The notes under the pieces were generated by a model. The model searched no databases. It saw only the letters and a list, made by a program, of their open reading frames with translations, and was not told the origin of the DNA. This document shows positions 4,943 through 24,920 of a DNA stretch of 29,459 bases, one piece after another; position 1 is the first letter of the stretch; each line of letters opens with the position of its first letter. The position numbers and the translations under genes were made by a program. The DNA comes from a virus, in the UHGV virus genome UHGV-0099905. The stretch is one strand, 5' to 3'.

Positions 4943-4982
4943 AGCAACTCCTGACTAACAGATGAAAGTATTCTTTCAGAAA

Positions 4983-6600: not shown

Positions 6601-6729
6601 ATGGAAATGTTTTTGATTAAAATAAAAAATATTCTTTTATATTGCCCTATCATTTTTATTTTTAGTAATTTATTAGCAAGAGATTGCGATCTCTTTTTTA
6701 GTTAAAGCAAATTAGTTAAGGATTAGTCT

Positions 6730-7278
6730 ATGAAACGTTCAGTTATTGCGGCTACTGTATTAGCATCTCTTTTTATGAGCGCAGGATCATTTGCAGCAGA
6801 AGGGAGTACAGAGGGTCAGTTAACTATTAACGGTAAAGTCACAGAGACTACATGTCAGTTCCTGAGCGGTAGTGAGAATACAACAATTTCGATGAGCGAA
6901 ATTGGTCGTGATCAATTTGAAAATGTAGAAGTTGGCTCCCCCGTTACTACTTATTCAAATACAACATCTTTACCACTAAAAGTTAAGTGTACCGGAGGAA
7001 AAGAACCAAGAATTACCTTCTCCAGCACCCAATTTGAAGGAACGGATTCAAATATTATTCGCAATACTGGTGATGCTAGCGGTGTCGGTTTCGCTGTTTT
7101 TTTGGGGAAAGGTACTGATTCTAGCAACCGGATTTCTGGTAATAGACCTATTAAGTTAACACCAACTACTAATGGTGAACATGAGTTACATTTTACGGCA
7201 CAATACGCAAAAACAGCTGTTGATGTGGGTACTGGCGAAGTTAGTTCTGCGATAACAATGACCGTTGTAACAGATTAA
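6730..7278 (+). CDS. Fimbrial major subunit (chaperone-usher pathway)
   Basis: Signal peptide MKRSVIAATVLASLFMSAGSFA, about 180 aa, first in operon before chaperone and usher; AGGA SD upstream. Confidence 0.7.
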   Translation: MKRSVIAATVLASLFMSAGSFAAEGSTEGQLTINGKVTETTCQFLSGSENTTISMSEIGRDQFENVEVGSPVTTYSNTTSLPLKVKCTGGKEPRITFSSTQFEGTDSNIIRNTGDASGVGFAVFLGKGTDSSNRISGNRPIKLTPTTNGEHELHFTAQYAKTAVDVGTGEVSSAITMTVVTD

Positions 7279-7333
7279 CATGATGTTTATCGGCGGCTTC
7301 GGTCGCCGATTTTCAATCGCAAGGATTGTTATC

Positions 7334-8014
7334 ATGAAAAAATTAATAGCCTTCTTACTAACCGTAACGGTCCCATCTGCGTGGGGCGGTGTCTATATTT
7401 ACGGCACTCGCGTTATTTATCCGGAACAGAAAAAAGAGATTGCAGTTCAGTTAATGAATGAAGGTGAGCGTAGTGCTCTTGTTCAGTCGTGGATTGATGA
7501 TGGCGATGCCAGCCTTCCTCCGGAAAAGATTAGTGTACCTTTTGTGCTGACTCCACCGGTAGTTCATGTTAGTAAGGGTGAAGGACAGCAACTGAAAATT
7601 AAACAACTGGCGAACACTCTACCTAAAGATCGCGAAAGTCTGTTCTTCCTTAATGTACTGGATATTCCACCTAATAGTGAGAAATACGAAGGCAAGAATC
7701 TGATTAAATTCGCGATGCAAAATCGTATCAAATTTATTTATCGCCCAAAGGGTATAACAAGAGTCGATAAAGAGAGTTTTTCCCGGATTAATATCAGACC
7801 CGTTGATAGAGGCATTAACATAAAAAATAATTCAGCGAACTGGATAACCATTCCTGAATTAACCGGGAATGCGAAAATTAATAAGGAGACACTACTGCTG
7901 GCACCCTGGTCAGATCAGACTGTCAAAACGACATCCGTTGTTAACTATTACAATGTTACTCTGATTGATGATCATGGAAACTATTTGAGTGAAAAAATAA
8001 AAACTGCCAAATAG
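7334..8014 (+). CDS. Periplasmic fimbrial chaperone (PapD-like)
   Basis: Classic chaperone N-terminal pattern GVYIYGTRVIYPE...; start moved to ATG at 7334 (MKKLIAFLL signal peptide) behind AAGGA, rather than the track start at 7280. Confidence 0.85.
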   Translation: MKKLIAFLLTVTVPSAWGGVYIYGTRVIYPEQKKEIAVQLMNEGERSALVQSWIDDGDASLPPEKISVPFVLTPPVVHVSKGEGQQLKIKQLANTLPKDRESLFFLNVLDIPPNSEKYEGKNLIKFAMQNRIKFIYRPKGITRVDKESFSRINIRPVDRGINIKNNSANWITIPELTGNAKINKETLLLAPWSDQTVKTTSVVNYYNVTLIDDHGNYLSEKIKTAK

Positions 8015-8031
8015 ATTATCAGGGATTGGTT

Positions 8032-10518
8032 ATGTCAAAGTTTAATTCTATTACACTGGCTATTCTGTCAGTATTAGCGACTTCGCATACATGGGCTAAG
8101 GGTGAAACGTTTAATACCAATTTTATGATTGGTGGTTTAAATGGGGAGAAAATTTCTAACTACCATATTGATAGTGATAAGCCGATGCCGGGTATCTACG
8201 CTATGGATGTTTATCTGAATAATCAATGGCGTGGCCACTATGATATTGATATTAAAGATGACCCTAATGCAACATGTTTATCCATGGAGCAATTAAAGCA
8301 AATTGGGATCCTCACTGAAGGAATTAGTATCGATAAAGGCGTAGAATGTGTACCACTTCGGGATGCTGTCCAGGGAGGCAGCGTCGACTATGATATTGGG
8401 CATTTTAACCTAAAATTAAGCGTGCCCCAAGCCTATGTTCTGGAATATGAACATGGCTATGTTCCGCCTGAAGCATGGGATCGCGGGATTAACGCATTAT
8501 ATACATCTTATTATGCCAGTCAGTATTACAGTGATTATAAAAACGGCGGAGATGATAAAAGTAGCTATCTAAATCTGAACAGTGGGTTAAATCTCCTGGG
8601 CTGGCAGCTGCATTCAAATGCCAATTATACGAAAAGCGACGAAAACAGCGGTAAATGGAAGAGTAACACGCTATATCTGGAACGTGGAATTCCACAAATT
8701 CTCGGCACGTTTCGCGCAGGTGAAATGTATACTGGTTCTGATGTTTTTGACTCCGTGCGTTTTCGCGGCGTGCGCCTTTGGCGCGATATGCAGATGTTAC
8801 CGAACTCTAAACAGAATTTTACTCCTGTGGTACGCGGCGTTGCCCAGAGTAACGCACTCGTCACCATAGAACAAAATGGTTTTGTGGTTTACCAGAAAGA
8901 AGTACCGCCAGGCCCATTCGCCATTGATGATTTGCAACTTTCTAATGGTGGGGCAGATTTGGAAGTTATCGTCAAAGAAGCTGATGGTTCAACGTCGTAC
9001 TATCGGGTGCCTTATTCATCGGTGCCAAATATGTTGCAACCTGGCGTTTCTAAATATGAATTTTCAGCCGGACGTAGTCATATTGAAGGAGCCAGCAATC
9101 AATCTGATTTTATCCAGGGAAGCTATAAGCATGGTTTCAACAATTTGCTGACAGGTTATGGCGGCACGCTGTTATCTGATAATTACTCATCGTTTGTTCT
9201 TGGAACAGGATGGAATACACCGATTGGTGCTATATCGGTTGATTTTACCCATTCATACAGCAAGCAAGACAACGGTGATGTGTTTAACGGTCAAAGTTAT
9301 CAGATTGCCTGGAATAAATATCTCTCTCAGAGCGGAACACAATTTTCTCTGGCGGCCTGGCGTTATTCCTCTCGGGGTTATCGTACTTTTAACGATCATG
9401 TATGGGCAAATAACAAAAATAGATACAATCGAGAAGACAACTCAGGCTATGACATTGCCAACTACTACCAGTATGATTTTGGTCGCAAGAATAGCTTTTC
9501 TTTAAATATCAACCAGTCATTACCGGAAAATTGGGGGTATCTGGCGATCAGCGGTCAATGGCGAGATTACTGGGAACGTAGCGGGACAGGGAAAAATTAC
9601 CAACTAAGCTATACGAACTCATGGGAACGTCTAAGTTATACCTTGTCGGTTAGCCAGACATACGATGAGGATAACAGCGAAGACAGACGCATTAACTTAT
9701 TTTTCTCAATCCCCTTCTCGTGGCGTGATAATATCACCGAAAAACGACGAGATTTATTTATCTCTAACTCGACCACATTTGATAAAGACGGCTACCAGTC
9801 AAATACTACCAGCCTCAGTGGTGTAGCTGGGAACCGTGATCAGTTCAGCTACGGGGCTAACTTTAGCCATCAACAACAGGACAGCGAAGCAACAGCAGGT
9901 GGAAATCTGATTTGGCGTGCGCCAGTGGCTACCATTGGTGGCAGCTATAGCCAGTCGAAAAAATATCAACAGATAAGTGGTAATATTCAAGGTGGTTTAG
10001 TCGCGTGGTCAGACGGGATAGCACTGGCTCCCAGACTTTCAGATACATTTACCATCGTCCATGCTCCGGGGCTGGATGGGGCTGCGGTACAGGGGTATCG
10101 TTACCTGAGCACGGATAGCCGAGGTTACGCTATTTATGACAGCCTGACGCCGTATCGTAAAAACACGTTGATGCTGGATACTTCTGACAGTCAAAGCGAT
10201 GTGGCACTACTGGGCAACCGTAAAAGCACCGCTCCTTATCGTGGGGCCGTTGTGATGACGCAGTTTGATACTGACAAACGTAAACCCTGGTATTTCCTTG
10301 CTCAGCGCCCGGATGGTTCTCCATTATCGTTCGGTTATGAAGTTGAAGATGAAAGCGGTAAGAATGTGGGCTTGGTAGGACAGGGAAGTCGGATATTTAT
10401 TCGCACTGATGATGTTCCCGCATCGATTCGCGTCTCGGTTAATAAACAGCAGGAACAATTCTGTACTATTACCTTTGATAAAGTTATCGAAGAGAATAAA
10501 GTTTATATTTGTCGTTAA
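8032..10518 (+). CDS. Fimbrial outer-membrane usher
   Basis: About 830 aa, signal peptide, usher N-terminal FNTNF motif, beta-barrel-type composition; ATG at 8032 behind AGGGA. Confidence 0.9.
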   Translation: MSKFNSITLAILSVLATSHTWAKGETFNTNFMIGGLNGEKISNYHIDSDKPMPGIYAMDVYLNNQWRGHYDIDIKDDPNATCLSMEQLKQIGILTEGISIDKGVECVPLRDAVQGGSVDYDIGHFNLKLSVPQAYVLEYEHGYVPPEAWDRGINALYTSYYASQYYSDYKNGGDDKSSYLNLNSGLNLLGWQLHSNANYTKSDENSGKWKSNTLYLERGIPQILGTFRAGEMYTGSDVFDSVRFRGVRLWRDMQMLPNSKQNFTPVVRGVAQSNALVTIEQNGFVVYQKEVPPGPFAIDDLQLSNGGADLEVIVKEADGSTSYYRVPYSSVPNMLQPGVSKYEFSAGRSHIEGASNQSDFIQGSYKHGFNNLLTGYGGTLLSDNYSSFVLGTGWNTPIGAISVDFTHSYSKQDNGDVFNGQSYQIAWNKYLSQSGTQFSLAAWRYSSRGYRTFNDHVWANNKNRYNREDNSGYDIANYYQYDFGRKNSFSLNINQSLPENWGYLAISGQWRDYWERSGTGKNYQLSYTNSWERLSYTLSVSQTYDEDNSEDRRINLFFSIPFSWRDNITEKRRDLFISNSTTFDKDGYQSNTTSLSGVAGNRDQFSYGANFSHQQQDSEATAGGNLIWRAPVATIGGSYSQSKKYQQISGNIQGGLVAWSDGIALAPRLSDTFTIVHAPGLDGAAVQGYRYLSTDSRGYAIYDSLTPYRKNTLMLDTSDSQSDVALLGNRKSTAPYRGAVVMTQFDTDKRKPWYFLAQRPDGSPLSFGYEVEDESGKNVGLVGQGSRIFIRTDDVPASIRVSVNKQQEQFCTITFDKVIEENKVYICR

Positions 10519-10528
10519 AGGATTTTTT

Positions 10529-11539
10529 ATGAAGAAATATTGGTTTTTGTTTTTGTTGATTATTCCATTTTTTGGGCAGGCGAAATGTACCCCTAAGGGA
10601 ACTTGGACAGCAACTCAACCAATTACACTGGACTTAACAACGGATTCAACAATAGTAAGTTTTAATCCCAACCTGCAAGGATCTTATGAATGTAACTCGA
10701 GGGGGGATAAGATGTATTTTGCAACAACGTTAGATGACTATATTGTTGAAATGAAAGATGGCTCCAGCAATAAGTCTATTTTTATTAAATTAAAGCTTGA
10801 GGCTGATGGATTTCCTGTAGAAACGAGTGGTTCGCTTCTGTCGCCTAAAACCTATTCTGTTGCTGATACCATTAATAATAAACAACTGAAGTTAACGGCC
10901 TCATATATACCACCAACTAAATATAGAAGTGATCGTGGTGAAGCGGTAGAGGGGGATTCATTCGAATTGAAAAAAGCGGCGGCTAATTTTTTGTCTGATA
11001 ATACATGTAGTTCAAATATTCTTTCATGGATAGCATGCTATGTTTTTGGATTGTTAAATAAAGGTGAAGCTTACGAACAAAAACTAACCATTAATGTTAA
11101 ACACAAACCCACAACCTGTCGTTTCTCGCAACCGACTTACGAAATAAGAATACCAGAAACAACGATAAGTGAAATGCTATCTGCCAATAACTCAAAATCA
11201 GGTTCTGTAGATCTGGTCCTAAATTGCGATAGTGTCTATAACGTCACGACTAATCCAGTGACTTTTAAAGTTGAGCGTGGTGTGTGGGATGATAGTGGAA
11301 CAATATTGAAAAATACATTGTCCGATGGTGCTAAGGGTGTAGGGTTCCAGATTTACAATGGTAATGCAACGACACCGTTAAAGCTGGGCGATACCCTGAT
11401 GAACAGATTACCTAAAATGGCGGCTATTCAGGAGCAGTACATCTTCCCGATTACCGCAAAATACGTTCGCGTGAAAGAGGAAGCTTTACAGCCTGGGGAA
11501 GTTCAAGGCCAGGCGATATTTGCCGTATCCTACGACTAA
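10529..11539 (+). CDS. Fimbrial minor subunit / tip adhesin candidate (two-domain size, about 337 aa)
   Basis: Signal peptide MKKYWFLFLLIIPFFGQA starting at ATG 10529 after SD AAAGGA; the track start at 10409 overlaps the usher and is rejected. Confidence 0.6.
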   Translation: MKKYWFLFLLIIPFFGQAKCTPKGTWTATQPITLDLTTDSTIVSFNPNLQGSYECNSRGDKMYFATTLDDYIVEMKDGSSNKSIFIKLKLEADGFPVETSGSLLSPKTYSVADTINNKQLKLTASYIPPTKYRSDRGEAVEGDSFELKKAAANFLSDNTCSSNILSWIACYVFGLLNKGEAYEQKLTINVKHKPTTCRFSQPTYEIRIPETTISEMLSANNSKSGSVDLVLNCDSVYNVTTNPVTFKVERGVWDDSGTILKNTLSDGAKGVGFQIYNGNATTPLKLGDTLMNRLPKMAAIQEQYIFPITAKYVRVKEEALQPGEVQGQAIFAVSYD

Positions 11540-11566
11540 TGAGCATGGTGGTTAGTCGCTACTTTT

Positions 11567-11600
11567 CACGTACTTTCGGAGAGAAAGTACGTGTGTTTTT
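11567..11600 (+). terminator. Rho-independent terminator after the fimbrial operon
   Basis: 11-bp perfect stem CACGTACTTTC / GAAAGTACGTG, 5-nt loop, followed by TGTTTTT. Confidence 0.6.
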
Positions 11601-11717
11601 ATCCAGAGCGCCCTAAAACCCCGTCCTTCAGAGTGGAGGTATAAGGCGCACTGGATAAAATGATGGAGTAGTGGGCAATTAAGCTCTATAATTGCGTACA
11701 CATATTGAGTACACGAG

Positions 11718-11945
11718 GTGTTTATGCAATCTATTAACTTCCGTACCGCACGCAGCAATCTTACCGAAGTGCTCAACAATGTTGAAGCCGGAGAAGAGGT
11801 TGAAATCACCCGTAGAGGCCGTGAGCCAGCTGTAATTGTCAGCAAGGCCACTTTCGAAGCCTACAAAAAAGCGGCGCTGGATGCTGAATTCGCATCCCTG
11901 TTTGACACTCTGGACACCACCAATAAGAAACTGGTTAACCGATAA
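11718..11945 (+). CDS. phd: Phd antitoxin (P1-type)
   Basis: [64 protein letters not shown]... is near-identical to P1 Phd as recalled; overlaps doc by TAATG. Confidence 0.9.
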
Positions 11946-12322
11946 TGAGGCATATATCACCGGAAGAGCTTACTGCAATTCATGATGCGAATATAAGCCG
12001 CTACGGCGGCCTGCCAGGCATGTCAGATTCGGGAAGAGCTGAGGCTATTATCGGGAGAGTCCAGGCCAGAGTTGCATATGAAGAGATTACCGACCTTTTC
12101 GAAGTCTCCGCAACTTACCTGGTGGCTACTGCGAGAGGGCATATATTCAATGATGCCAATAAGCGTACCGCGCTAAACAGTGCGTTGTTATTTCTGCGCC
12201 GTAACGGTGTGCAGGTATATGATTCACCAGAACTGGCAGAGCTTACTGTGGGGGCTGCGACCGGAGAGGTATCCGTATCTACTGTCGTTGCCACGTTACG
12301 TAGATTGTATGGTACGGCGTAG
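11945..12322 (+). CDS. doc: Doc toxin (Fic-fold kinase, P1-type)
   Basis: MRHISPEEL...[26 protein letters not shown]... matches P1 Doc as recalled, including the Fic-like HxFxDANKR motif. Confidence 0.9.
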
Positions 12323-12455
12323 TAAATTAATGGTACGCAAATACAACAAATTGTCCCGTGACGCGTTAAAGATGCTTCTTGATGGGGTGAGCAGCCGCAA
12401 GGTTATGAATCGCCACGGATAATTTAGACACTTCCGAGCCGTTGATAATACTGGT

Positions 12456-13640
12456 TCAAACTAATGCAGCTATGCCTTTTACCTTGCTTAAAAGTTCAAG
12501 CTGTCGTGAATAAGGTTTTGCGCAATAGTAGGCTTTGATAATCTGCCCCGGTGTCGCATCGCCGGGATCGAGTCCTTCCTCGCCCAAACACGCTACTTTG
12601 ACATTAAGACCGATACTGGTCAGTCGCCTGGCTGCGGCCATCGTGTTGCGTATAGCTTGCTTTTCACTATCCCACATCATAATCACATTACGTAATCCAC
12701 GCGCCTTGAGCGTCAGGAACGCGCCCAACTGATCTTCTGCATCCTGAGTGGTGTTACCAGATAGATGCATCCCGAACGTTCCTATCGGTTCCACGTAATC
12801 GCGTAATGTTTCTTCATCAAAAATAGCTCGTTTAACCCCCATAACATCGAACGCCCCCTCACAGACAACTACAGTCTGTTTGCCGACTGCATTGTGGCCG
12901 TTGTAGAGAAATTTACCCGATGCTGGCAGCTGCATGGGGAACAGATACCGGCGTTCTGCTGCACCGGTAATGTCACGACCCTGGAAGGTCTTCATCACGC
13001 CATCCAGATCGTAAACCGGTATCAGTATTCGCATATCGAATACCTGTCCTTTGACCTGGTCTGTGTACGGATCGACGTATGCGTGCTTGCCTTCGACGCA
13101 GTAACGCAGATCAAAGTATTTGGCCAGCTCCGGGGAAATCTGGCGCTCCACCAGATAATCAGGAAGACGACCGTCAATGGGGAGTTCGTAATGGCGCGGG
13201 AGAGCTACCGGTCCTTCCAGTTCAACCTTGCTGGCCAGCACGATCTCTTCCTTCTTCGGCGCCCAACCTTGTGAGATCAGCGCGTTCTGGACGTACTCTT
13301 CAAAATCGCGACGGGATTTGCCGCTGTAATGCTTTAGGAAGACCAGCTTATTGAACTGAATCTCTTCGGGATGATCACCTGCAAAGCATTTGCCGACACC
13401 ACTGGTCAGGTTGAAATAAACCTTCCAGTTTGAGCTGCCGCATACCGGACACTCTTTAATGTTGACCTCTCGTCCGCGAGTACTGACTCCACCATGACGG
13501 TAGATGATCCCTTCCATATCGAGCCATTGCTCAAAATCCAGCTCGGTCAGTAATTCTTTCAAGTCGCTCACGTTCTTACCCCTGTTTTTTGCAGGTAATA
13601 TCTTGATAAGCCTCGGTATTTGAATACCATAAAGGCTCAT
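12456..13640 (-). CDS. DNA primase (zinc-ribbon N-terminus plus TOPRIM-like core)
   Basis: CPVCGSS...C...H zinc-binding pattern and acidic TOPRIM-like segment VVVCEGAFD; start placed at ATG 13640 (MSLYGIQ) rather than the upstream TTG of the track. Confidence 0.6.
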   Translation of the reverse strand: MSLYGIQIPRLIKILPAKNRGKNVSDLKELLTELDFEQWLDMEGIIYRHGGVSTRGREVNIKECPVCGSSNWKVYFNLTSGVGKCFAGDHPEEIQFNKLVFLKHYSGKSRRDFEEYVQNALISQGWAPKKEEIVLASKVELEGPVALPRHYELPIDGRLPDYLVERQISPELAKYFDLRYCVEGKHAYVDPYTDQVKGQVFDMRILIPVYDLDGVMKTFQGRDITGAAERRYLFPMQLPASGKFLYNGHNAVGKQTVVVCEGAFDVMGVKRAIFDEETLRDYVEPIGTFGMHLSGNTTQDAEDQLGAFLTLKARGLRNVIMMWDSEKQAIRNTMAAARRLTSIGLNVKVACLGEEGLDPGDATPGQIIKAYYCAKPYSRQLELLSKVKGIAALV

Positions 13641-13694
13641 GTGTTTTTTCTTTTGTGGTTTTGGCAAAAGAGAAATTTGTTCTCTTCTGGAGAC

Positions 13695-13729
13695 AGGCGT
13701 GGAGAGTGTTTCCCCACGCCTTCTTTTTT
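13695..13729 (+). terminator. Plus-strand-oriented hairpin plus T-run, between minus-strand helicase and primase genes
   Basis: AGGCGTGG / CCACGCCT 8-bp stem followed by TTCTTTTTT on the plus strand; on the minus strand an A-run precedes the hairpin. Confidence 0.4.
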
Positions 13730-15068
13730 AGAGGACGTCCATAATGCGTTCGATGAATCGCATTTGTTCGAGGTTCTGCTTAACGCGGATGCTTACGCCG
13801 CCTTTCTGGTTACGTGAACCAGCGAAGTAAAGACGCGCTTCGCCTTTCGCTTCTTCTTCTTCCGTTTTGTTGATAGTGATAACGAGGTCAGCGATACGCA
13901 CCTTCTCGATGTTGTCCGCTGCGTGCATCATTGTAGCCACCTCAGAAGCGCCACCTTCTCTGTTAGTCTGCGATGCCGTGATGCCGGCAACGTTGTGTTT
14001 GTCGTACAGCGCACGCAGGTCAGTGTAGATGCTGCGAATGTTAGCGCGGTCGTCGCGGAGGTCGTAGCTGGCACGCATCAGGTCAGCGTAGTCGACCACA
14101 ACCATATCGGGGACCATACCGTTGGCTTTCATGCTGCCCAACATACGGTCCAGATCTGCGGGCGACATGCTTCCGGACGGTCGTTCAACAATCCACAAAC
14201 TTCCCACGCCTTTCGTCGCACCCAGCTCCGCCAGTTTGCGATGGACGTCATCGCGACGTTCCACCAGCCTGGACATTTCGGTCTCAGACAGACGGGCGTC
14301 AAAGCGATCTGACAGAATGGAGGTGTGAACTTCCAGCGACAGATACAGGACGTTGTAACCGGCAAGCGTGGCGTTGATGGAAAACTCCCCCATCGCCGTC
14401 GATTTACCAGACTTAGCGAAGCCCATAAACAGCACCATTTCACGCTTTGCCCAGCCTTTCTGGTAAAGCAGTTTGTCGAGCAGCGGGAGGCCGGTAGTGA
14501 TGCTGTTTGGCACGTAATCGTCGGACGCTTCGTACTCACGGGCCTTGTAACGCTCCGCTGATTCTGCGAAGTAATCGTAAATGCCGGTCGCTTCGTTAGA
14601 GCCAATTTGCTGGACCTTAGCCATGATTGCCATCGCGCCCTGGAAATCGCCCTTCTCTTTCATCTCAGCCGCTTTAATTAGCGCATCGTCGAACGCTACG
14701 CTTTTAGCAAATGTCGCGACCTGGTCGACCATGTACGCCGTATCTGACAGCTTCTCAGCGAGAATGCGCTTAAACGCCTCAACAACGTCAGGGAACAGCT
14801 CTTCGCGGATCGTCTTATCGCGTTTGGCGCGTTTGAGCATGTCGAGGATGGCTGATGATGATGGTGCGCTCTTATACATTCTGTAGTAGCCCGACACCAT
14901 GTTAACCAGAATGGAGTTAGCCGCATTAGAGAACTGGTTTGGGGCAACCAGATCGCCTGCGCGAGTCAGAAACTCATGGTCGCGACAGAAGTAGGCAGCG
15001 AGTCTATTCTGGAAGTCGTCGTCGAACTCTTCAGACAACCCTCGTCCTGTGTGGCAAAGTTCGGTCAT
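13728..15068 (-). CDS. Replicative DNA helicase, DnaB family
   Basis: Walker A GFAKSGKST, RecA-like C-terminal domain with DnaB-type motifs; 446 aa; diverged from host DnaB. Confidence 0.8.
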   Translation of the reverse strand: MTELCHTGRGLSEEFDDDFQNRLAAYFCRDHEFLTRAGDLVAPNQFSNAANSILVNMVSGYYRMYKSAPSSSAILDMLKRAKRDKTIREELFPDVVEAFKRILAEKLSDTAYMVDQVATFAKSVAFDDALIKAAEMKEKGDFQGAMAIMAKVQQIGSNEATGIYDYFAESAERYKAREYEASDDYVPNSITTGLPLLDKLLYQKGWAKREMVLFMGFAKSGKSTAMGEFSINATLAGYNVLYLSLEVHTSILSDRFDARLSETEMSRLVERRDDVHRKLAELGATKGVGSLWIVERPSGSMSPADLDRMLGSMKANGMVPDMVVVDYADLMRASYDLRDDRANIRSIYTDLRALYDKHNVAGITASQTNREGGASEVATMMHAADNIEKVRIADLVITINKTEEEEAKGEARLYFAGSRNQKGGVSIRVKQNLEQMRFIERIMDVL

Positions 15069-15128
15069 GTGCTTTCCTTTGGTGCTTAAACAATTTGTTT
15101 TCTAATACTAAAAAAGCCAGATAGGGGA

Positions 15129-15854
15129 TCAACAGAATCGCCGTGCTTCTTCCAGTTCTTCCGGGAAGTGCGCGTAAATCACACGCTCAGGCACGATTTC
15201 CATCAACCAGACAGCGGAGAAGATGATACGGATGCGTTTATCTCGGGTAATGCCACGCAGACGCTCCAGAATCCACTCAAAATAGCGTTCCTGAATCGGG
15301 TCACGCTGCATGTCTCCAAGATGCTTAAAACTCACCAGAGAGTCATCCAGACGGGTTACAGCGCGTTTGGCTAACTTCTCTTCGAATATCTCGATCAACT
15401 CGGGCTGCCAGAGATGCTGGGGGCGCGGTAATTTGTCCCACAGCCGTCGTGCAGCTGCGGAAAGAACGGTGGAGATAAAGTAGTCGTATGAGCAGCAATA
15501 GCGGTCAGCAAACTGGCGTGCTTTCCAGAGCGACGTTTTGTTGACCGTCGACAACTCCTGATATGGCACACGCTTCAGACCGGTTGTGAATGGAGCCGTC
15601 TCATAGTGTTCACGACCATGCGACAGCATGATGTATGAGTACTGGCGCTTGTATGCCTCAGTGAAAAGGCATGTGGCCATAAGTGGGTGCATGTCGCGGT
15701 AATCAAACCACTTCGTCTCGAAGAGTTCAGCCTCGTCTTTACAGCGCGACAAACCAATGTTTTCAGCGACCCACTTGTCCATAACAGCGGTATTCCACTC
15801 TGTCATGAAATCGTACTGGTCATTGTCGATAGTGTTGAAGAAGATCTGGCTCAC
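15129..15854 (-). CDS. Hypothetical protein (241 aa), first gene of the helicase-primase operon
   Basis: ORF in track; GTG start at 15854 behind AAGGGA; motif copy immediately upstream. Confidence 0.55.
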   Translation of the reverse strand: MSQIFFNTIDNDQYDFMTEWNTAVMDKWVAENIGLSRCKDEAELFETKWFDYRDMHPLMATCLFTEAYKRQYSYIMLSHGREHYETAPFTTGLKRVPYQELSTVNKTSLWKARQFADRYCCSYDYFISTVLSAAARRLWDKLPRPQHLWQPELIEIFEEKLAKRAVTRLDDSLVSFKHLGDMQRDPIQERYFEWILERLRGITRDKRIRIIFSAVWLMEIVPERVIYAHFPEELEEARRFC

Positions 15855-15866
15855 ATGATTCCCTTT

Positions 15867-15890
15867 AATAGGTATGTACTTACTTATCTA
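15867..15890. promoter_or_regulatory. Motif copy AATAGGTATGTACTTACTTATCTA
   Basis: Near-identical to the copy at 24921-24944 (21 of 22 aligned positions); directly upstream of the replication operon. Confidence 0.55.
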
Positions 15891-15991
15891 AGTGAGCGAA
15901 TCATAGCGACTGGAGATATTTTTGGGAAGTGGAAACGGAAGGGAGTTGTTCTGGTGGGTGTCTTTTAAAAGACCTGCTTCCGTATATATTT

Positions 15992-16006
15992 AATAAGTTA
16001 CTTATT
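15992..16006. promoter_or_regulatory. Palindrome AATAAGT-T-ACTTATT in the AT-rich region upstream of the GIY-YIG gene
   Basis: 7-bp perfect inverted repeat with 1-bp spacer, same half-site as the other motif copies. Confidence 0.45.
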
Positions 16007-16136
16007 ATTTATATACAGAAACAGGCATAACTTGTCGTCTTAGACACCCAGAAGCTCTACACTTTGAGCCTGTAAAATTGATTAAAAACTTATGTGTAAA
16101 ATAGAACGCATTAGTCAGTAGCTAAGAGATGCAATA

Positions 16137-16904
16137 ATGGACGATTTATCGGTATACGCGAGATCATTGGATAAGGCTAAATACTATGTTTACTGTCTCT
16201 ATGATACAGAAGACAAGATGAAAAGACCGTTTTACATAGGAAAAGGCAAATCGACTCGTTGTCTCGATCACATCAAGTATCCCGATGACTCTCCCAAATC
16301 CATGCGGATCAAAGAACTTTTGGCTAATAAAAAATTAGGCATAGATATTCTTCGTCATGGTATGGATGAAACCACAGCCAAACTTGTTGAGGCGACATGC
16401 ATCGACCTTATGGGTGTCGGAGAGCTTACGAATAAGGTACGAGGAAGTGGTTCCATGATGGGCAGAATATCACTGGACGCCTACCATCACTTAGTGCTGC
16501 AAGAGGAAACTGAAATTGCTCCTGAGCACGCCGGTCTTGCCTTCCTGCTAAACAGCACCTACAAGTCAGGAATGTCCGCTCTGGCATTATATGAAGCTAC
16601 GCGTGGCGTATGGGCAAAGGTTCCAAGAGACGAGAATCTCAAATATGCCTACGCTACATATGGGGGCCTGATAATGGAAGTTTATCAGATTGAATGCTGG
16701 GTCAAAGCCGGTTCTCAGCAGTACTTTACAAGGGATATAGCTCTTGGCCCCGACACAAAACGTTATGAATTTGTTGGCAGAATAGCCGATGAGCATATTA
16801 GAAAACTGTATGTAGGCAAATTAATCAAGAAGCCACCAAGCTACGGCAGCCCTTTTGTGAAGGTTGGGGTGGTTAGGAATGAACATAGTGTTAGCGCGGC
16901 ATAA
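16137..16904 (+). CDS. GIY-YIG nuclease-domain protein with uncharacterised C-terminal domain
   Basis: N-terminal KYYVYCLYDTEDKMKRPFYIGKGKSTRCLDH fits the GIY...YIG...R...H pattern with a downstream Glu; about 170-aa C-terminal region of unknown fold. Confidence 0.6.
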   Translation: MDDLSVYARSLDKAKYYVYCLYDTEDKMKRPFYIGKGKSTRCLDHIKYPDDSPKSMRIKELLANKKLGIDILRHGMDETTAKLVEATCIDLMGVGELTNKVRGSGSMMGRISLDAYHHLVLQEETEIAPEHAGLAFLLNSTYKSGMSALALYEATRGVWAKVPRDENLKYAYATYGGLIMEVYQIECWVKAGSQQYFTRDIALGPDTKRYEFVGRIADEHIRKLYVGKLIKKPPSYGSPFVKVGVVRNEHSVSAA

Positions 16905-16920
16905 AGCTGACACTGTACTT

Positions 16921-16959
16921 ATGCATTGGCGCGTACATTGCGCCAATGCATAATTTTTA
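16921..16959. terminator. Bidirectional terminator between the convergent GIY-YIG gene and the partition operon
   Basis: 12-bp perfect inverted repeat ATGCATTGGCGC-N7-GCGCCAATGCAT followed by AATTTTTA. Confidence 0.6.
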
Positions 16960-17316
16960 ACCTTTCTTCATCAACTCTCGTTTGATTTCATCGGTACGCA
17001 TCGTGACATCGGCAGCTGTGATCGCCTCGTTAAGTTTCACGATGTCCTCGATTTCCTGCGGTGACTTCTCTGCCAGATGGAAAATGGCTGCGCGAATCAC
17101 GTCAGAACGGGTGAACTTCTCGAAACGAGGGATGAACTTCATCATTTCCAGCAGTTCGAAGTATTCGTCCTCCAGTGACATTGTGCGGCTTTTAATTTTC
17201 TCTTTGCCACGAGTCGGGCGTCCCTGTGGTCTGACTGGTTGGCGCAAAGGAGTTGTGTTCTTGGCCGGTGCATCAGGCTCTTTGCGCTTTGCTAGGTCAC
17301 CCATTTTCATGGACAT
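16957..17316 (-). CDS. Putative partition adaptor / centromere-binding protein (small, basic N-terminus)
   Basis: 119 aa directly downstream of the ParA gene; K/R/P-rich N-terminal tail then helical domain; assignment by context only. Confidence 0.4.
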   Translation of the reverse strand: MSMKMGDLAKRKEPDAPAKNTTPLRQPVRPQGRPTRGKEKIKSRTMSLEDEYFELLEMMKFIPRFEKFTRSDVIRAAIFHLAEKSPQEIEDIVKLNEAITAADVTMRTDEIKRELMKKG

Positions 17317-17984
17317 TATTCTTCTTCCTCCAGACTCAACAGATAATCTACAAATTCTTCAAACTCGGCTTCCGCCTTTTTGTCGCGCTCGCTACCGGTC
17401 ATTTCAAAGATAGAACGACCAGACTCTTCCGCATCATCATAGACGTTGCGGTTATATAAATTGACTGGCGCAGACTCGATGCCAAACGTCTCGACAATCT
17501 CTTTAGCCGCCAAAATGCGAGACACTTGTGATGGCAAAGCCGGGCACTGGTTCATGACCGCGCGGACCTTCACTTTATCGTTTACATTACGAACATTGTC
17601 GATAATAGGATCGATGTCACGCAGAGATTTCAAATCACGACGCTTAGGACGAAGCGGGATAATGATAACGTCGGCCATCAGCATCGCTTGTCGCTGAATT
17701 TCGGAGTCAAAGCCACCAGCATCTACCACTACAAACTCAGCTCTACCCTGAAGCGATTTTAGGTGCTTAATGATGTCATCCTGAACGTATGCAAAAGGAA
17801 TCAGCTCAAGGTCTTCGTTCTGTCGACGGTCTTCACACCAGCTTGTTGTCGTGCGCTGAATATCTATATCAGTGATATAAACCTTCTTCTTCTTTTTGAC
17901 TTTCAGGCAAACGGCAATTTGCTGGGCAACAGTGGATTTGCCAGGCCCGCCCTTTGTGCCGCCAACCACAAAGATCTTGGTCAT
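17316..17984 (-). CDS. parA: ParA/Soj-family partition ATPase (small type)
   Basis: Deviant Walker A VVGGTKGGPGKST; 222 aa, typical of small ParA/ParF-like ATPases. Confidence 0.8.
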   Translation of the reverse strand: MTKIFVVGGTKGGPGKSTVAQQIAVCLKVKKKKKVYITDIDIQRTTTSWCEDRRQNEDLELIPFAYVQDDIIKHLKSLQGRAEFVVVDAGGFDSEIQRQAMLMADVIIIPLRPKRRDLKSLRDIDPIIDNVRNVNDKVKVRAVMNQCPALPSQVSRILAAKEIVETFGIESAPVNLYNRNVYDDAEESGRSIFEMTGSERDKKAEAEFEEFVDYLLSLEEEE

Positions 17985-18161
17985 TGGAGAGTTCCCTTTG
18001 CGTATATAATTATCGTCTGAAACAACTTGTTTTCTTATATGTGATATAGCCTAAATGCCTACGGCTGCGGTGTAAAGGTTATTTAGTAGGTTGTTATTGC
18101 CTATTGCTAGTAACTGTTTTCATTTGTCTGTTGAAAAAAGTGACAATCATCTCTATATTAC

Positions 18162-18184
18162 GTGTACGGTAAATTGCCGTACAC
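18162..18184. promoter_or_regulatory. Inverted repeat GTGTACGG-N7-CCGTACAC upstream of the partition operon (candidate operator/centromere element)
   Basis: Perfect 8-bp inverted repeat; a 12-bp palindrome GGGCTATAGCCC lies at 18207-18218. Confidence 0.35.
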
Positions 18185-18264
18185 AATTTGATGACACATA
18201 CGCAATGGGCTATAGCCCAGTTAAATAACCTTTGAGTCGAAAACTCAGTTTAAATAGAGAGCAA

Positions 18265-18293
18265 TGATGGCCTTCCTACATCACCGGCCATCA
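18265..18293. promoter_or_regulatory. Inverted repeat TGATGGCC-N13-GGCCATCA overlapping the RBS of the antitoxin gene (candidate TA operator)
   Basis: Perfect 8-bp arms immediately upstream of the ATG at 18304. Confidence 0.4.
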
Positions 18294-18303
18294 GGGGGTA
18301 CAC

Positions 18304-18573
18304 ATGTCCGCACTGAAAAAGCAGCGCATCGATTTGAGATTAACCGATGACGATAAAAGCATCATCGAGGAAGCTGCCGCAATGTCTAACCAGAGCATTA
18401 CCCAGTTCATGGTTAGCAGTGCATCCGAACGTGCCGTGAAGGTGATAGAGCAACACCGTAGACTGGTTCTAAGTGAAGAGTCCTGGAATCTGGTTATGGA
18501 TGCTATAAGCAATCCTCCGGCACCGAACGACAAGCTGAAACGAGCTGCCAATCGTCTGAAAAGCATGGAGTAA
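18304..18573 (+). CDS. tacA: DUF1778-type RHH antitoxin (TacA-like)
   Basis: 89 aa; RIDLRLTDDDKSIIEEAAA...QFMV...AISNPPAPNDKLKRA pattern typical of the family; followed 8 nt later by a GNAT gene. Confidence 0.8.
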   Translation: MSALKKQRIDLRLTDDDKSIIEEAAAMSNQSITQFMVSSASERAVKVIEQHRRLVLSEESWNLVMDAISNPPAPNDKLKRAANRLKSME

Positions 18574-18580
18574 TTTACTC

Positions 18581-19102
18581 GTGAGCAATACGACGATCGA
18601 GATTTTCTCTGGAGAGAAAGATTATGATCTAAACGGTTTTGATTGCGGCGAAGAGTCACTAAACGCATTTTTGACCAACCACTTAAAAAGACAGCATGAA
18701 GGAAAAATTCTTCGCGCTTATGTGCTTTGCACTAAAGAAGAAATACCAAAGGTATTAGGTTATTACACTTTGTCAGGCAGCTGCTTTGAGAAAGAAAACT
18801 TACCTTCAAAGAGTCAGCAAAAGAAAGTGCCTTATCGGCATGTCCCAAGTATCACTTTAGGCAGACTGGCTTTGGACAAATCTCTTCAAGGTCAGGGGCT
18901 TGGCTCAATGCTTGTAACTCACGCAATGCGTGTTGTGTACAATGCATCTCTTGCGGTAGGCATTCATGGGCTTTTCGTTGAGGCGTTGAACGATAAAGCC
19001 AGGGCGTTTTATAAAAGTTTGGGCTTTATCCAGCTGGTTGGTAACAACGATCGTTCTTTGTTCTATCCAACAAAATCTATCGAAAAATTGTTCGAAGAAT
19101 AA
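18581..19102 (+). CDS. tacT: GNAT-family acetyltransferase toxin (TacT/AtaT-like)
   Basis: 173 aa GNAT fold pattern (LGYYTLSGSCF..., QGQGLGSMLV) paired with a DUF1778 gene; GTG start. Confidence 0.8.
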   Translation: MSNTTIEIFSGEKDYDLNGFDCGEESLNAFLTNHLKRQHEGKILRAYVLCTKEEIPKVLGYYTLSGSCFEKENLPSKSQQKKVPYRHVPSITLGRLALDKSLQGQGLGSMLVTHAMRVVYNASLAVGIHGLFVEALNDKARAFYKSLGFIQLVGNNDRSLFYPTKSIEKLFEE

Positions 19103-19134
19103 TGTGTCCCCCTCATTTGAGGGGAACTTCGACA

Positions 19135-19320
19135 TCACCAACCGCAAACTCTCTCTCCCATCGTATTGTGAAAAAGGATTTGGCGTTCGGTTTCTTCGGT
19201 CATTACATCGTCATTGCTGATATAAATAGGTTCAGCGCCATCGCAGAACAACACGCTGGTGGTCTGTGGCTTAATTACGCACCCACTTATCATGCAGCTC
19301 ACGATGAATGGCAGAAGCAT
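19135..19320 (-). CDS. Outer-membrane spanin candidate (lipoprotein), embedded in a different frame in the i-spanin gene
   Basis: Lipoprotein signal MLLPFIVSCMISGC with lipobox; overlaps the 3' part of 19271-19522 out of frame, the classic Rz/Rz1 arrangement. Confidence 0.5.
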   Translation of the reverse strand: MLLPFIVSCMISGCVIKPQTTSVLFCDGAEPIYISNDDVMTEETERQILFHNTMGERVCGW

Positions 19321-19522
19321 CTTTCTGACGTATTTCACTGTTCGTCTCATTCACCACTTCCACTGTGCTTTGAAGACGCTTGTTATCTTCCCGCCGTTCT
19401 TTCTCTTCCATACTGCGTCTGGCCATATACCCGCCATAGGAGTATGCGCCGACAAGGACTAGAATGACGGCGGCCAGAGTGAACAAAGCGGATTTCATTT
19501 TGAACAACAGGCCGTCGAACAT
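19271..19522 (-). CDS. Inner-membrane spanin candidate (N-terminal TM, charged periplasmic helix)
   Basis: 83 aa; TM helix SALFTLAAVILVLVGAY followed by a charged helical segment; downstream of the putative lysin. Confidence 0.5.
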   Translation of the reverse strand: MFDGLLFKMKSALFTLAAVILVLVGAYSYGGYMARRSMEEKERREDNKRLQSTVEVVNETNSEIRQKDASAIHRELHDKWVRN

Positions 19523-19524
19523 AC

Positions 19525-20217
19525 TTACACTAATCCTTTCTGGTGCTTGCGAACCTGGGACCAGGCAATGAATGCTGCCACAAGAATGGTAGCTACGCCA
19601 AAGATGATGCGTACCGTATCTCCACTGGAGATATTGCCTTGCGCTTTATCCATTGCGGCAGAAACTTGAGGCATAACGTCAGCAATTTGTGCAAGGCCAA
19701 TACCTGCAGTGACTGTAGCACCTGTGGTTTCTTTTGTTACAGGAACGGCTTTTACAGCCTTTACCGGTTTGACAATGCCGGCACGTCGCAGCCCTTCTTC
19801 GATAAGTTCTGGTGTATACCAGCTATTGGGGGTTTTCAGCGGACCTCGGCCATTTTCATGTCTAATGATCGCCTCTACCAGCGGTCTTAAGGTCTCGTAG
19901 TCATGCAGATCGATAATCATATCTGGTGCTACTCCAACGGCTTTGGATACCTCGTTCACATAAGCCAAAGTGTTGTTCTCATGTGGAGGCGCCCAGCGTT
20001 CGATGACTTCGCGGATCGTATCAATGCTGGAGCCATCTTTTGCGCGGCGCTTGTCGTGGTAAGTAATGAGTGTCACTGCCAAAGCCCGAATCCCCCACAC
20101 GGGGTCTTTGAACGTGCAGAAACGCGGTTCGGCAGGGTTGTCAATTAGCCCCTGCCACGGCGCTCCTTTATCAAGATTACCGGGGTTGTTATTACGAATG
20201 CCTCTCGGAGTTTTCAT
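19525..20217 (-). CDS. Putative cell-wall hydrolase (endolysin-like) with C-terminal hydrophobic anchor; family not recognised
   Basis: Position between holin-like gene and spanins; N-terminal motif RGIRNNNPGNL; C-terminal TM IIFGVATILVAAFIAWSQV; start placed at ATG 20217 behind AGGAGA. Confidence 0.35.
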   Translation of the reverse strand: MKTPRGIRNNNPGNLDKGAPWQGLIDNPAEPRFCTFKDPVWGIRALAVTLITYHDKRRAKDGSSIDTIREVIERWAPPHENNTLAYVNEVSKAVGVAPDMIIDLHDYETLRPLVEAIIRHENGRGPLKTPNSWYTPELIEEGLRRAGIVKPVKAVKAVPVTKETTGATVTAGIGLAQIADVMPQVSAAMDKAQGNISSGDTVRIIFGVATILVAAFIAWSQVRKHQKGLV

Positions 20218-20230
20218 CCTTGATCTCCTG

Positions 20231-20554
20231 TTATTGCAATCCATTTTTTACGCCATACGCGGCCAATCCTAAAAGCAGTACGGTAATAATGAACGACGTT
20301 ATTTTCGAAACAATGCCGCCAAAGAACCCACTGGAGATGGTGTCGAGCCGGTTAAGAAGTTTGTCCAGATTGGAGTGCTGAATGCTGTGTTGTGCGGGCG
20401 TCATATCGCCAAAGTAGGTTTTGAGCTGGTCATTGACCTCCTGACCAATTTCCTCGCGTATTTCTTTACCTAATTTGCCTACGACTTCCCGAGCAACGAT
20501 TGAGGCGATGCGCTCAACCTGTTCAGTTGTGACTCCCGCCATCTCGTTCGACAT
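20231..20554 (-). CDS. Holin-like small membrane protein (single C-terminal TM)
   Basis: 107 aa from the ATG preceded by GGAGGA; C-terminal TM ITSFIITVLLLGLAAYGV; first gene of the lysis-like cassette; an extended -10 (TGGTATAAAT) lies upstream. Confidence 0.4.
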   Translation of the reverse strand: MSNEMAGVTTEQVERIASIVAREVVGKLGKEIREEIGQEVNDQLKTYFGDMTPAQHSIQHSNLDKLLNRLDTISSGFFGGIVSKITSFIITVLLLGLAAYGVKNGLQ

Positions 20555-20620
20555 GTTTTCCTCCATGAAAAGTCAAATCGGGATGGCGAATTTATACCAC
20601 AAATATTACCTTTTTTGTAG

Positions 20621-20632
20621 GTAAGTACTTAC
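20621..20632. promoter_or_regulatory. Perfect 12-bp palindrome GTAAGTACTTAC (motif copy) upstream of the lysis-like cassette
   Basis: Overlaps the stop codon of the Gly-rich gene; followed at about 25 nt by TGGTATAAAT. Confidence 0.5.
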
Positions 20633-21423
20633 ACACGAGAACCGTATATTGCTCCGACGGCGATCCATTGAGGGGCATTACCCATGACAGCAGCCCCAGC
20701 AGCCCCACCGCCATATCGATTTCCAGAGTTGCCATAACACGCTCCACCTGCCGCTCCAACATTGCCACCAGTACCGCCATGATTAGCGTTAACCCCAGAC
20801 CCAGTACCTGGAGCAGTAAGCGAAGCGGCCCCAGCAGCAGCACCACCATTGCCTGAATACCTACCTGCAGCACCAAATGGCCTGCCACCGCCACCACCTA
20901 CCAGATAGGCTCCGACAAAGCCGGCATCCCAATAGCCACCACCGCCACCACCGCCACCACCGCCACCACCGGCAATAGCACCATTATTGGTAATACGTAG
21001 TCTAGTTCCTATTGCATTCTTAATCGCGGCCCCACCAGCAGAACCCGCTGAGTTTGACCCGCCATTTCCTCCTCTCCCATATATGGTAACTCCACCATTA
21101 ATTACGAGGTTAATATATGAGTTTGATAAGTCACCAGGAAAGTCTAGGCAAGGGACTGTACTACTTGTAGAAACTAAATCCCCTGTAATAGTAACTACTA
21201 CAGGTGTAGAGCCAACAGAGCGTAAATATGATATTAATGTGTCTTTGTTATAATTGTGATTAGCCCCTATTGAGTAGTAAATCTCTTTTGACCTACCGGC
21301 CATCTGTGACATATTTCCTGCTGCCGACAATTGGACTGTGGTACGGGCAGCACTCATCCAACGTTGCCCTGTTTCGGAAACCGCTGATGATCCTATCCAT
21401 CCTGGAACATTTGAAATTGACAC
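20629..21423 (-). CDS. Glycine-rich protein (264 aa) downstream of the side tail fibre gene
   Basis: ORF in track; GTG start after GAGAGGG; central G12 run and GG/GN repeats; N-terminal non-repetitive domain. Confidence 0.6.
   Translation of the reverse strand: MSISNVPGWIGSSAVSETGQRWMSAARTTVQLSAAGNMSQMAGRSKEIYYSIGANHNYNKDTLISYLRSVGSTPVVVTITGDLVSTSSTVPCLDFPGDLSNSYINLVINGGVTIYGRGGNGGSNSAGSAGGAAIKNAIGTRLRITNNGAIAGGGGGGGGGGGGYWDAGFVGAYLVGGGGGRPFGAAGRYSGNGGAAAGAASLTAPGTGSGVNANHGGTGGNVGAAGGACYGNSGNRYGGGAAGAAVMGNAPQWIAVGAIYGSRV
20936..20973. repeat. Simple-sequence repeat (CCACCACCG)x4 encoding the poly-Gly run
   Basis: Seen directly; the 9-bp unit keeps the reading frame. Confidence 0.9.
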
Positions 21424-21485
21424 AATAACCCTCTCAAATATTATGACAGTTTATTATGGGAGAGGTCTTAGCCTCTCCAACATTA

Positions 21486-24875: not shown

Positions 24876-24895
24876 GTTCTTTTTCACTCCTTGAA

Positions 24896-24919: not shown

Positions 24920-24920
24920 A

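Follow-up and report, generated by a model that had tools for sequence, protein, structure and literature searches.

A virion-module deletion scar and three maintenance modules in an SSU5-type segment, probably from a multidrug-resistance plasmid

Introduction

SSU5-group phage-plasmids and the variable, plasmid-like cargo that they carry have already been described, and toxin-antitoxin systems and PapC/PapD-type pilus genes are listed among the shell genes of the SSU5 supergroup (PMC7969092). The conversion of phage-plasmids into plasmids by gene loss, accompanied by the gain of resistance genes, has been shown for P1-like elements (PMC10879196), and the confounding of typing by defective and hybrid elements has been discussed (PMC12977533). 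The plasmid pLAO59 was presented by its authors as a 'Y-type phage-plasmid' that lost its phage body genes, a loss they attributed to the insertion sequences (ISs) ISKpn26/IS1294 (PMC10272864). Here we analyse the virus genome UHGV-0099905, a stretch of 29,459 nucleotides (nt) referred to throughout as the window, in which a phd/doc pair, a ParA partition operon and an AtaRT-like toxin-antitoxin pair are interleaved with phage replication, lysis and tail genes. A sequence-only reading had taken this combination, in the interval 11718-19102, as the signature of a phage-plasmid. We consider it very likely that the window derives from the backbone of an Escherichia coli SSU5-like phage-plasmid, probably assignable to the pSLy3 group, and that this ~28-kb piece (1191-29093) has lost its virion genes and now resides on a large multidrug-resistance plasmid.

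Two complete elements serve as points of comparison. SSU5, like pHCM2, shares with the window its synteny together with the ligase block, the primase, the DnaB-like helicase, the ParA operon, the lysis genes and the helicase/lipoprotein block. It is a complete virus, unlike the window element, and it has no phd/doc, fimbrial operon, AtaRT-like pair or GIY-YIG gene; SSU5_041, SSU5_035-037 and SSU5_031-032 fill those slots instead. The 110-kb E. coli plasmid pTB212 (CP033252), which carries SSU5-type repA, dnaE, terminase, portal, major capsid and tape measure genes and a 1524-residue tail-tip protein, is a complete SSU5-like phage-plasmid, and its relatives are E. coli SSU5-like phage-plasmids of ~106-115 kb (the pSLy3-type group). 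It has phd/doc, the ParA operon, the AtaRT-like pair, a PD-T4-3-like gene and the fimbrial operon as in the window and in identical order, and differs from the window in possessing a 23.8-kb packaging/head/tail module, a ~39-kb regulatory and DNA-metabolism arm and a different tail-fibre cassette.

Results

An SSU5-type backbone without its virion module

Nucleotide identity to SSU5 is 80-96% in the ligase block, the primase-helicase genes, the ParA operon, the lysis genes and the helicase/lipoprotein block, all of which stand in the order that they have in SSU5. Patches of the tail-fibre and tail-tip genes are less similar, at 68-81%, and three tail-gene patches stand at 68-75%. Identity to pTB212 exceeds 99% over window positions 1191-20632 and is 98.4-98.9% over 23390-29093, which bears out the SSU5/pHCM2-like ancestry that the sequence-only reading had expected. 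That reading had also called the phd/doc pair P1-like and the remainder not P1, and this too agrees with what we find: the match to P1/P7 is limited to 717 bp (11687-12403, 91% identity), with no P1-type structural, lytic-replication or lysis genes in the window, and a P1-like phage-plasmid identity is thereby ruled out. Near-identical matches to the window are all plasmid-borne, with none on a chromosome, and a chromosomal prophage is likewise rejected.

The evidence that decides what became of this backbone lies just to the right of 11718-19102, in a chimeric open reading frame (ORF) and in the genes that follow it:

25013-26533, minus strand, chimeric in-frame ORF of 506 amino acids (aa), with Pfam ParB_N and Phage_Tail_Tip in one ORF
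28925-29093, plus strand, first ~56 codons of a transcriptional regulator, SSU5_121 homologue, truncated by an IS3-family remnant
29094-29459, minus strand, IS3-family transposase remnant (rve domains; PGAP pseudogene in AP027746), which ends the SSU5-type segment

In the fusion ORF, ParB_N occupies residues 14-103 and the tail-tip domain residues 215-350. Residues 1-191 correspond to the N-terminus of the SSU5_125 homologue, and the remainder to the last ~315 of the 1524 residues of the tail-tip (J-type) protein; the part kept is the C-terminal, receptor-binding part. At the junction (25958-25963) there are a few bases of microhomology and no IS, and the reading frame is continuous. Relative to SSU5, window 25601-25954 aligns with 21735-21382 and window 25958-29093 with 100392-97256; relative to pTB212 the breakpoints are at 44565 and 68334, so that 23.8 kb is gone. 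The missing interval corresponds to SSU5_126-130 and 001-019. In SSU5 and pTB212 it includes genes for a second ParB-like protein, an ABC-type ATPase, a small-terminase-like protein, TerL, the portal, the major capsid protein, head-tail connectors, the tape measure and minor tail proteins, and it also takes in about four fifths of the tail-tip gene. No packaging/head/tail morphogenesis module is present in the window. These alignments identify the fusion ORF as the scar of a 23.8-kb deletion of the virion module; PGAP labels both of its halves as pseudogenes in AP027746. An IS-mediated deletion of the virion genes, as proposed for pLAO59, is unsupported at the junction, where only the microhomology is seen. 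IS elements do border the SSU5-type segment on both sides, with IS26 on the left and the IS3-family remnant on the right.

In pTB212 and pHNAH968 the regulator gene is complete, whereas AP027746 has it annotated as 'incomplete'. With the regulator cut at 29093, and with a ~37-39-kb regulatory/DNA-metabolism arm absent from both pLAO59 and AP027746, no intact lysogeny or regulatory region is seen. The deletion junction and the IS-cut regulator together tell against the present-day phage-plasmid that the sequence-only reading had proposed.

Plasmids that share the junction

We assessed the rarity of the junction with a 601-bp probe across it, considering the PLSDB plasmids that match either half (n = 278). 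The two halves are contiguous in only five of these plasmids. When the 60 best holders of the terminase-portal-capsid block are listed, each of them at least 96.3% identical, none of the five appears. The five are:

pLAO59 (OP242238), IncY, 111.5 kb, human stool, Laos
p2017-01-4CC_1 (AP027746), IncFIB + IncY, 183 kb, human faeces, Vietnam
pYY76-1-1 (CP040928), IncFIB + IncQ1 + IncY (+ rep_cluster_312), 163 kb, cow faeces, China
pTAir-3 (CP063951), IncFIB + IncY, 146 kb, air, China
pHNAH968 (CP104619), IncFIB only, 133 kb, chicken faeces, China

The closest relatives are pLAO59 and AP027746, which are identical to the window at 99.96% over 29.4 kb and 99.89% over 28.3 kb, respectively, and which share with it the junction, the truncated regulator, the three modules, the fimbrial operon and the Gp38-type fibre cassette. 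They differ from it at the left end:

1-57, terminal 57 nt of IS26, left boundary (100% to the IS26 copies of pLAO59)
58-1004, plus strand, 3' part of a PAS-domain methyl-accepting chemotaxis protein (MCP) gene, cut by IS26, collinear with the full-length pLAO59 gene (cargo)

The IS26 of the window cuts the MCP gene at a point where neither pLAO59 nor AP027746 is cut, and the exact IS26/MCP joint has no match in PLSDB or in complete E. coli genomes. Because this joint fits neither plasmid, the source of the window is a further member of the pLAO59/AP027746 sublineage, and what is said here of the rest of its replicon is drawn from those two relatives. In pLAO59 the MCP gene is intact and IS26 lies farther left.

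In the complete sequences examined, 33.5 kb (pLAO59) and 45.2 kb (AP027746) of the 110-kb pTB212 backbone is retained, and no virion genes (packaging, head) were found anywhere in either plasmid. Resistance, mercury and silver/copper determinants bounded by IS26 fill both plasmids. Each of them also has, ~2.5 kb beyond the right end of the window region, a repA-incA-parAB block that shares 98.3% identity with phage P7 (IncY):

pLAO59 1-3500 and AP027746 41992-45419, P7-type repA-incA-parA-parB block

An SSU5-type RepA (IncFIB, pHCM2/H89 type) is present in AP027746 and not in pLAO59, which relies on the P7-type IncY repA. The sequence-only reading had named a chromosomal location between core genes, together with the absence of packaging genes and of a replication initiator elsewhere in the element, as evidence that would speak against it; in the two closest complete records the packaging genes are indeed absent. 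In gene content pLAO59 and AP027746 are thus hybrids that join a P1-family replicon to an SSU5-type remnant, and plasmids of their type also carry P7-type parAB and vapBC. The record 'Salmonella phage SJ1' (OQ595196, 24.5 kb) matches the P7-type block (99.9%) and the IS3 remnant of the window (93.7%).

In pHNAH968, one of the five junction plasmids, the regulator and the backbone next to it are preserved and an IncY replicon is lacking, which suggests an order in which the deletion came first, followed by IS-mediated rearrangements and the acquisition of IncY. The published description of pLAO59-like plasmids is refined in two respects: their phage-derived genes are SSU5-type, with only the replicon/partition block and phd/doc being P1/P7-type, and their virion deletion appears to be an IS-free microhomology event that made an in-frame fusion of the ParB and tail-tip genes.

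Three maintenance modules among conserved blocks and replaced slots

Comparison of the window with SSU5 reveals conserved blocks that alternate with replaced slots. Profile matches far beyond chance confirm three maintenance modules together with phage replication, lysis and tail genes, at or near the places where the sequence-only reading had put them. The blocks at the left and centre of the window are:

1191-5006, minus strand, SSU5-type block of SSU5_048-042 homologues (90.9% to SSU5 41976-38175; 99.3% to pTB212)
2217-3539, minus strand, ATP-dependent DNA ligase (ligase family matches)
12456-15854, minus strand, SSU5-type replication operon (90.8% to SSU5 36995-33458)
12456-13667, minus strand, primase (Pfam, PHROG and NCBIfam matches)
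13728-15068, minus strand, DnaB-like helicase (Pfam, PHROG and NCBIfam matches)
15129-15854, minus strand, conserved gene of the replication operon (phrog_2500)

The replaced slots are:

5007-12480, in place of SSU5_041: IS remnants, low-GC yehD-type chaperone-usher fimbrial operon and P1 cassette
16026-16958, in place of SSU5_035-037: GIY-YIG gene
18082-19152, in place of SSU5_031-032: AtaRT-like pair
20633-23389, in place of the tail-fibre cassette: a different fibre cassette

The phd/doc pair of P1 is a textbook plasmid-addiction module, in which Doc phosphorylates EF-Tu as a Fic-fold kinase unless labile Phd neutralises it, so that plasmid-free cells stop translating. The corresponding features of the window are:

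11687-12403, plus strand, P1-derived addiction cassette: Pphd -10 box, operator palindromes, phd, doc and pdcA stub (91% to P1 88009-88725)
11718-11945, plus strand, Phd, likely start ATG at 11724 (PF02604, E = 6.6e-13; TIGR01552)
11945-12322, plus strand, Doc (TIGR01550 DOC_P1, 124 bits against a cutoff of 38.65)

The cassette has in common with the P1 module its gene order, with the Phd/YefM antitoxin gene first, the overlap of the two genes (1 nt, at 11945) and the -10 box and operator region. The Doc of the window shares 92% identity with P1 Doc (PDB 3k33) and has an intact Fic motif, HIFNDANKR, that fits H-x-F-x-(D/N)-(A/G)-N-K-R. Homology to P1 begins exactly at the Pphd -10 box and stops ~80 nt into pdcA, a stub noted independently by PGAP ('PdcA incomplete') in pTB212 and AP027746, and because its boundaries fall at these two points the cassette is a direct import from a P1-family element. 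Both coding sequences are intact, and the -10 box and the operator region are kept with substitutions (one operator half-site reads GCGTACAC in the window against GTGTACAC in P1). Apart from the cassette nothing else of P1 is found in the window, and this includes the -35 region, which is not P1-derived.

The partition genes occupy the following positions:

16957-17984, minus strand, core partition operon (86% to SSU5_033/034)
17316-17984, minus strand, ParA, ParF-like type Ib, 222 aa (PF09140/PF13614; phrog_164; PDB ParF 4dzz, 1.2e-10)
16957-17316, minus strand, ParA partner ORF, 119 aa, overlapping parA (phrog_5111)
17985-18081, region upstream of parA, candidate promoter/operator/centromere (64 consecutive nt identical to SSU5)
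16919-16953, probable bidirectional terminator: hairpin with a 15-bp stem where the GIY-YIG and partition genes converge

ParA has a deviant Walker A box (KGGPGKST, residues 11-18) and no N-terminal DNA-binding domain; its best solved relatives are ParF (4dzz) and TP228 ParA (5u1g), and its NF041546 score of 116 bits lies below the equivalog cutoff of 180. Its similarity to the SSU5 genes places the operon in the backbone and not in the cargo. Members of the partner family (phrog_5111) come from Escherichia, Salmonella Typhi, Klebsiella and Citrobacter, where they lie on contigs of roughly 105-150 kb. In an alignment of the 119-aa partner the N-terminus (MGDLAK) is conserved and a basic linker can be seen, along with a strand-helix-helix-like pattern, which fits a disordered tail followed by strand-helix-helix, and a faint match (21 bits) to a ribbon-helix-helix family was obtained; the AF2 model, built on a 12-sequence alignment, is of low confidence (pLDDT 63, pTM 0.23). 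We infer from these properties that the 119-aa protein is a putative ParG-like, centromere-binding adaptor. The run of 64 nt upstream of parA is 100% identical to SSU5 as against 86% for the parA gene itself, which points to a constrained regulatory or centromere site, as a candidate, within 17985-18081. In common with ParF/ParG of TP228, the window has a small Walker ATPase gene, a translationally coupled small downstream gene and a conserved upstream region; it differs in that TP228 ParG has no detectable similarity to the 119-aa partner and in that no iterated centromere repeats were identified in the window.

The third module belongs to a family in which GNAT toxins (AtaT, KacT, TacT) acetylate charged tRNA and block translation, individual members differing in the aminoacyl-tRNA that they acetylate, and in which a DUF1778 antitoxin neutralises the toxin. 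Antitoxins of the AtaR/TacA type autoregulate their own operon. In the window this module consists of:

18304-19102, plus strand, AtaR/AtaT (KacA/KacT, TacA/TacT)-type operon, antitoxin then toxin, with a 7-nt gap
18304-18573, plus strand, DUF1778/TacA antitoxin (PF08681, 3.5e-26; KacA 5zgn, 2.5e-41; AtaT-associated DUF1778 antitoxin chain, 5.2e-40)
18581-19102, plus strand, GNAT toxin (GNAT Pfam matches; AtaT 6gts, 1.1e-77, 69% identity, full length; KacT, 4e-75)
18131-18184, plus strand, sigma-70-like site TTGAAA-17-TATATT, then the palindrome GTGTACGGTAA-T-TTGCCGTACAC, in the non-SSU5 segment

The intergenic region between parA and the antitoxin gene measures 319 bp and contains close inverted repeats at 18113-18293, the best of which has 11-nt arms with one mismatch. 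The sequence-only reading had assigned inverted repeats upstream of parA to the partition locus. The repeats do exist, but they barely exceed chance (27 of 300 dinucleotide shuffles equal or exceed the best) and all lie to the right of 18081, where homology to SSU5 ends, and hence on the toxin-antitoxin side; given this marginal shuffle test and their place in a non-SSU5 segment beside the toxin-antitoxin promoter, we reassigned them from a ParA centromere. Directly after the best promoter-like site, which is oriented towards the antitoxin gene, comes the palindrome (18162-18184), and 18131-18184 is a probable promoter and operator of the toxin-antitoxin operon. Both the antitoxin-first order and the palindrome after the promoter are as in AtaR-AtaT of E. 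coli O157:H7 and KacA-KacT of Klebsiella; the pair in the window differs from those systems in being a lineage-specific insert in a phage-plasmid backbone.

The toxin-antitoxin segment was found in 152 of 5426 complete E. coli genomes, at 152 plasmid places and no chromosomal one, so the chromosomal location that would have counted against the sequence-only reading is not seen. No occurrence of the pair with its palindrome was found outside SSU5-like contexts: all 152 E. coli matches are whole-query matches on plasmids of ~106-240 kb. Because they all cover the whole query, genomic context could not separate the repeats from parA.

Other cargo, lysis and tail-fibre genes

The remaining features of the cargo are:

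5039-6588, transposase and IS3-family remnants, left of the cargo island (PGAP pseudogenes at the equivalent positions of pTB212 and AP027746)
6730-11539, plus strand, yehD-type chaperone-usher fimbrial operon: subunit, chaperone, usher and adhesin-like protein (annotations of relatives; absent from SSU5)
16137-16904, plus strand, GIY-YIG nuclease gene, PD-T4-3/CMoRE anti-phage family (PADLOC PDLC04031, 1.3e-23, near full length; PDB 9u7u, 2e-15; PF22945)

In the cargo island that replaces SSU5_041, IS3-family remnants lie to the left of the fimbrial operon and the P1 phd/doc cassette to its right; the GC content of the operon is 0.40-0.43 against ~0.48-0.50 in its surroundings. PD-T4-3/CMoRE proteins are single-gene type IV restriction enzymes that cut phage DNA containing hydroxymethylcytosine or glucosyl-hydroxymethylcytosine. 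The profile matches mark the GIY-YIG ORF as a distant yet full-length relative of these enzymes. There is no SSU5 homology at 16026-16958. The gene is a fourth accessory gene within 11718-19102, unmentioned in the sequence-only reading, and is also present in intact pTB212.

The lysis, tail-fibre and right-hand backbone genes are:

19271-20566, minus strand, SSU5-type lysis cassette (80% to SSU5 28955-27478; phrog_1026, phrog_873 and phrog_5093; SSU5 annotation)
19271-19522, minus strand, Rz-like spanin
19525-20244, minus strand, endolysin
20231-20566, minus strand, putative holin
20629-24968, minus strand, mosaic tail-fibre cassette
20629-21423, minus strand, T-even-type Gp38 adhesin (PF05268, 2e-70)
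21486-24968, minus strand, long tail fibre, 1160 aa (Gp34_trimer and Peptidase_S74 chaperone domains)
26598-29093, plus strand, SSU5_124-121 homologues (95.9% to SSU5 100392-97256)
26598-28157, plus strand, DEAD/DEAH helicase, SSU5_124 homologue
28160-28438, plus strand, small ORF
28462-28920, plus strand, lipoprotein

Positions 20633-23389 of the window are not homologous to pTB212, in which this place is taken by genes for a tail-fibre assembly protein and a macro-domain protein; a host-range cassette seems to have been swapped here and kept despite the loss of the virion genes. The DEAD/DEAH helicase has a domain-level match to the PbeA defence models of PADLOC (1.8e-22), which probably reflects shared helicase domains and not membership.

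Discussion

The explanation that we favour is that the three modules would act as stacked devices for vertical inheritance. With Phd unstable and Doc acting as an EF-Tu kinase, the phd/doc cassette would bring about post-segregational killing. ParA and its translationally coupled 119-aa partner would provide type Ib active partition, with the putative adaptor binding a candidate centromere in the conserved ~100 bp upstream of parA and stimulating ParA. In the AtaRT-like pair, the GNAT toxin would acetylate charged tRNA and halt translation, and the DUF1778 protein would neutralise the toxin and autoregulate the operon. The modules occupy variable slots between conserved SSU5 blocks, beside the fimbrial operon, the PD-T4-3-like nuclease and the swapped tail-fibre cassette. 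A 23.8-kb IS-free deletion stripped away all packaging, head and tail-shaft genes, the regulator apparently being cut by an IS afterwards, and because the virion module is deleted and the regulator cut, the source replicon would produce no virions autonomously and the modules would now be plasmid stabilisers only. In intact relatives the same modules would stabilise a prophage-plasmid, and in the deletion lineage a resistance plasmid. What the modules do, where the centromere and the operators lie and whether the source replicon can be induced are judged from sequence comparison, whereas the identities of the genes, the limits of homology, the junction with its rarity and the lack of virion genes in the two closest complete relatives are direct observations.

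Several points weigh against this explanation. The 119-aa partner has no recognisable DNA-binding domain in Pfam or in a profile search of the PDB (noise only, E >= 0.44), and no convincing centromere repeats were found in 17985-18081, a direct-repeat search of 15.8-18.3 kb returning short two-copy matches only. The P1 -35 box was not carried over with phd/doc, so that expression would depend on a hybrid promoter. For three of the five junction plasmids, the missing virion genes are deduced from the list of the 60 best holders alone, and a second, intact copy of the virion module may be present elsewhere on the source replicon.

Such a possibility bears on the proposal that the window belongs to an intact, inducible SSU5/pHCM2-like phage-plasmid whose terminase, capsid and repA genes lie outside it. 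In its favour, the backbone is SSU5-like, neither the lysis nor the tail-fibre ORFs are interrupted, the same three modules are found in complete phage-plasmids (pTB212 among them), and the source replicon itself is not among the searched collections. Against this, every intact relative has its virion module directly between the tail-tip and ParB-like genes, which in the window are fused with 23.8 kb gone; the tail-tip protein is cut to its last ~315 of 1524 residues and the regulator is truncated, and the two closest complete records are without virion genes. We therefore regard an intact phage-plasmid as very unlikely. It is less likely still, to the point of being hardly credible, that the junction and the mosaicism are an assembly artefact or belong to a chromosomal defective prophage: an IS-rich region can mislead assemblers, but the junction recurs in five complete plasmids that were sequenced independently, with origins in Laos, Vietnam and China and in human, cow, chicken and air samples, has no IS at it and is crossed by a continuous ORF, and near-identical matches are found on plasmids only.

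A different question is what the toxin-antitoxin pairs do, and here the alternative that both serve mainly in anti-phage defence (abortive infection) or in competition between elements, forming a defence cluster with the PD-T4-3-like nuclease, has more in its favour, although we still consider it unlikely. A bona fide defence-family gene lies inside the same interval (PMC12923530), the modules sit in variable cargo slots, and Doc matches candidate defence-system models weakly. On the other side, P1 phd/doc is the classical case of plasmid addiction, the GNAT toxin has no PADLOC match, and the modules persist in a lineage stripped of phage functions. Defence and maintenance roles are not mutually exclusive, and given the PD-T4-3/CMoRE-like neighbour a defence role for the pairs, additional or alternative, is a reasonable proposition. 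More speculatively, selection might have favoured the deletion lineage as a hybrid between the two main families of enterobacterial phage-plasmids, combining an SSU5-type remnant, a P7/P1-type IncY replicon and a P1-type phd/doc, and able to interact with intact SSU5-like phage-plasmids through incompatibility/exclusion or satellite-like, helper-dependent mobilisation. We think this very improbable; if true, the interaction would rest on what the lineage has kept, namely its partition operon, its lysis genes, its tail-fibre cassette and the conserved SSU5 sequences.

Returning to the SSU5-type remnant on a resistance plasmid, which we prefer, the finding itself is already known, and everything in the window has precedent; the window most likely comes from an ordinary, already-described multidrug-resistance plasmid derived from a phage-plasmid. 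Its main value is as a correction. Reading co-occurring phage and plasmid genes as a 'phage-plasmid signature' can mislead, because phage-plasmids decay into plain plasmids. The lineage of the window is an SSU5-type case of phage-plasmid-to-plasmid conversion, and its gene content suggests that the maintenance modules outlive that conversion and now stabilise a multidrug and metal resistance plasmid.

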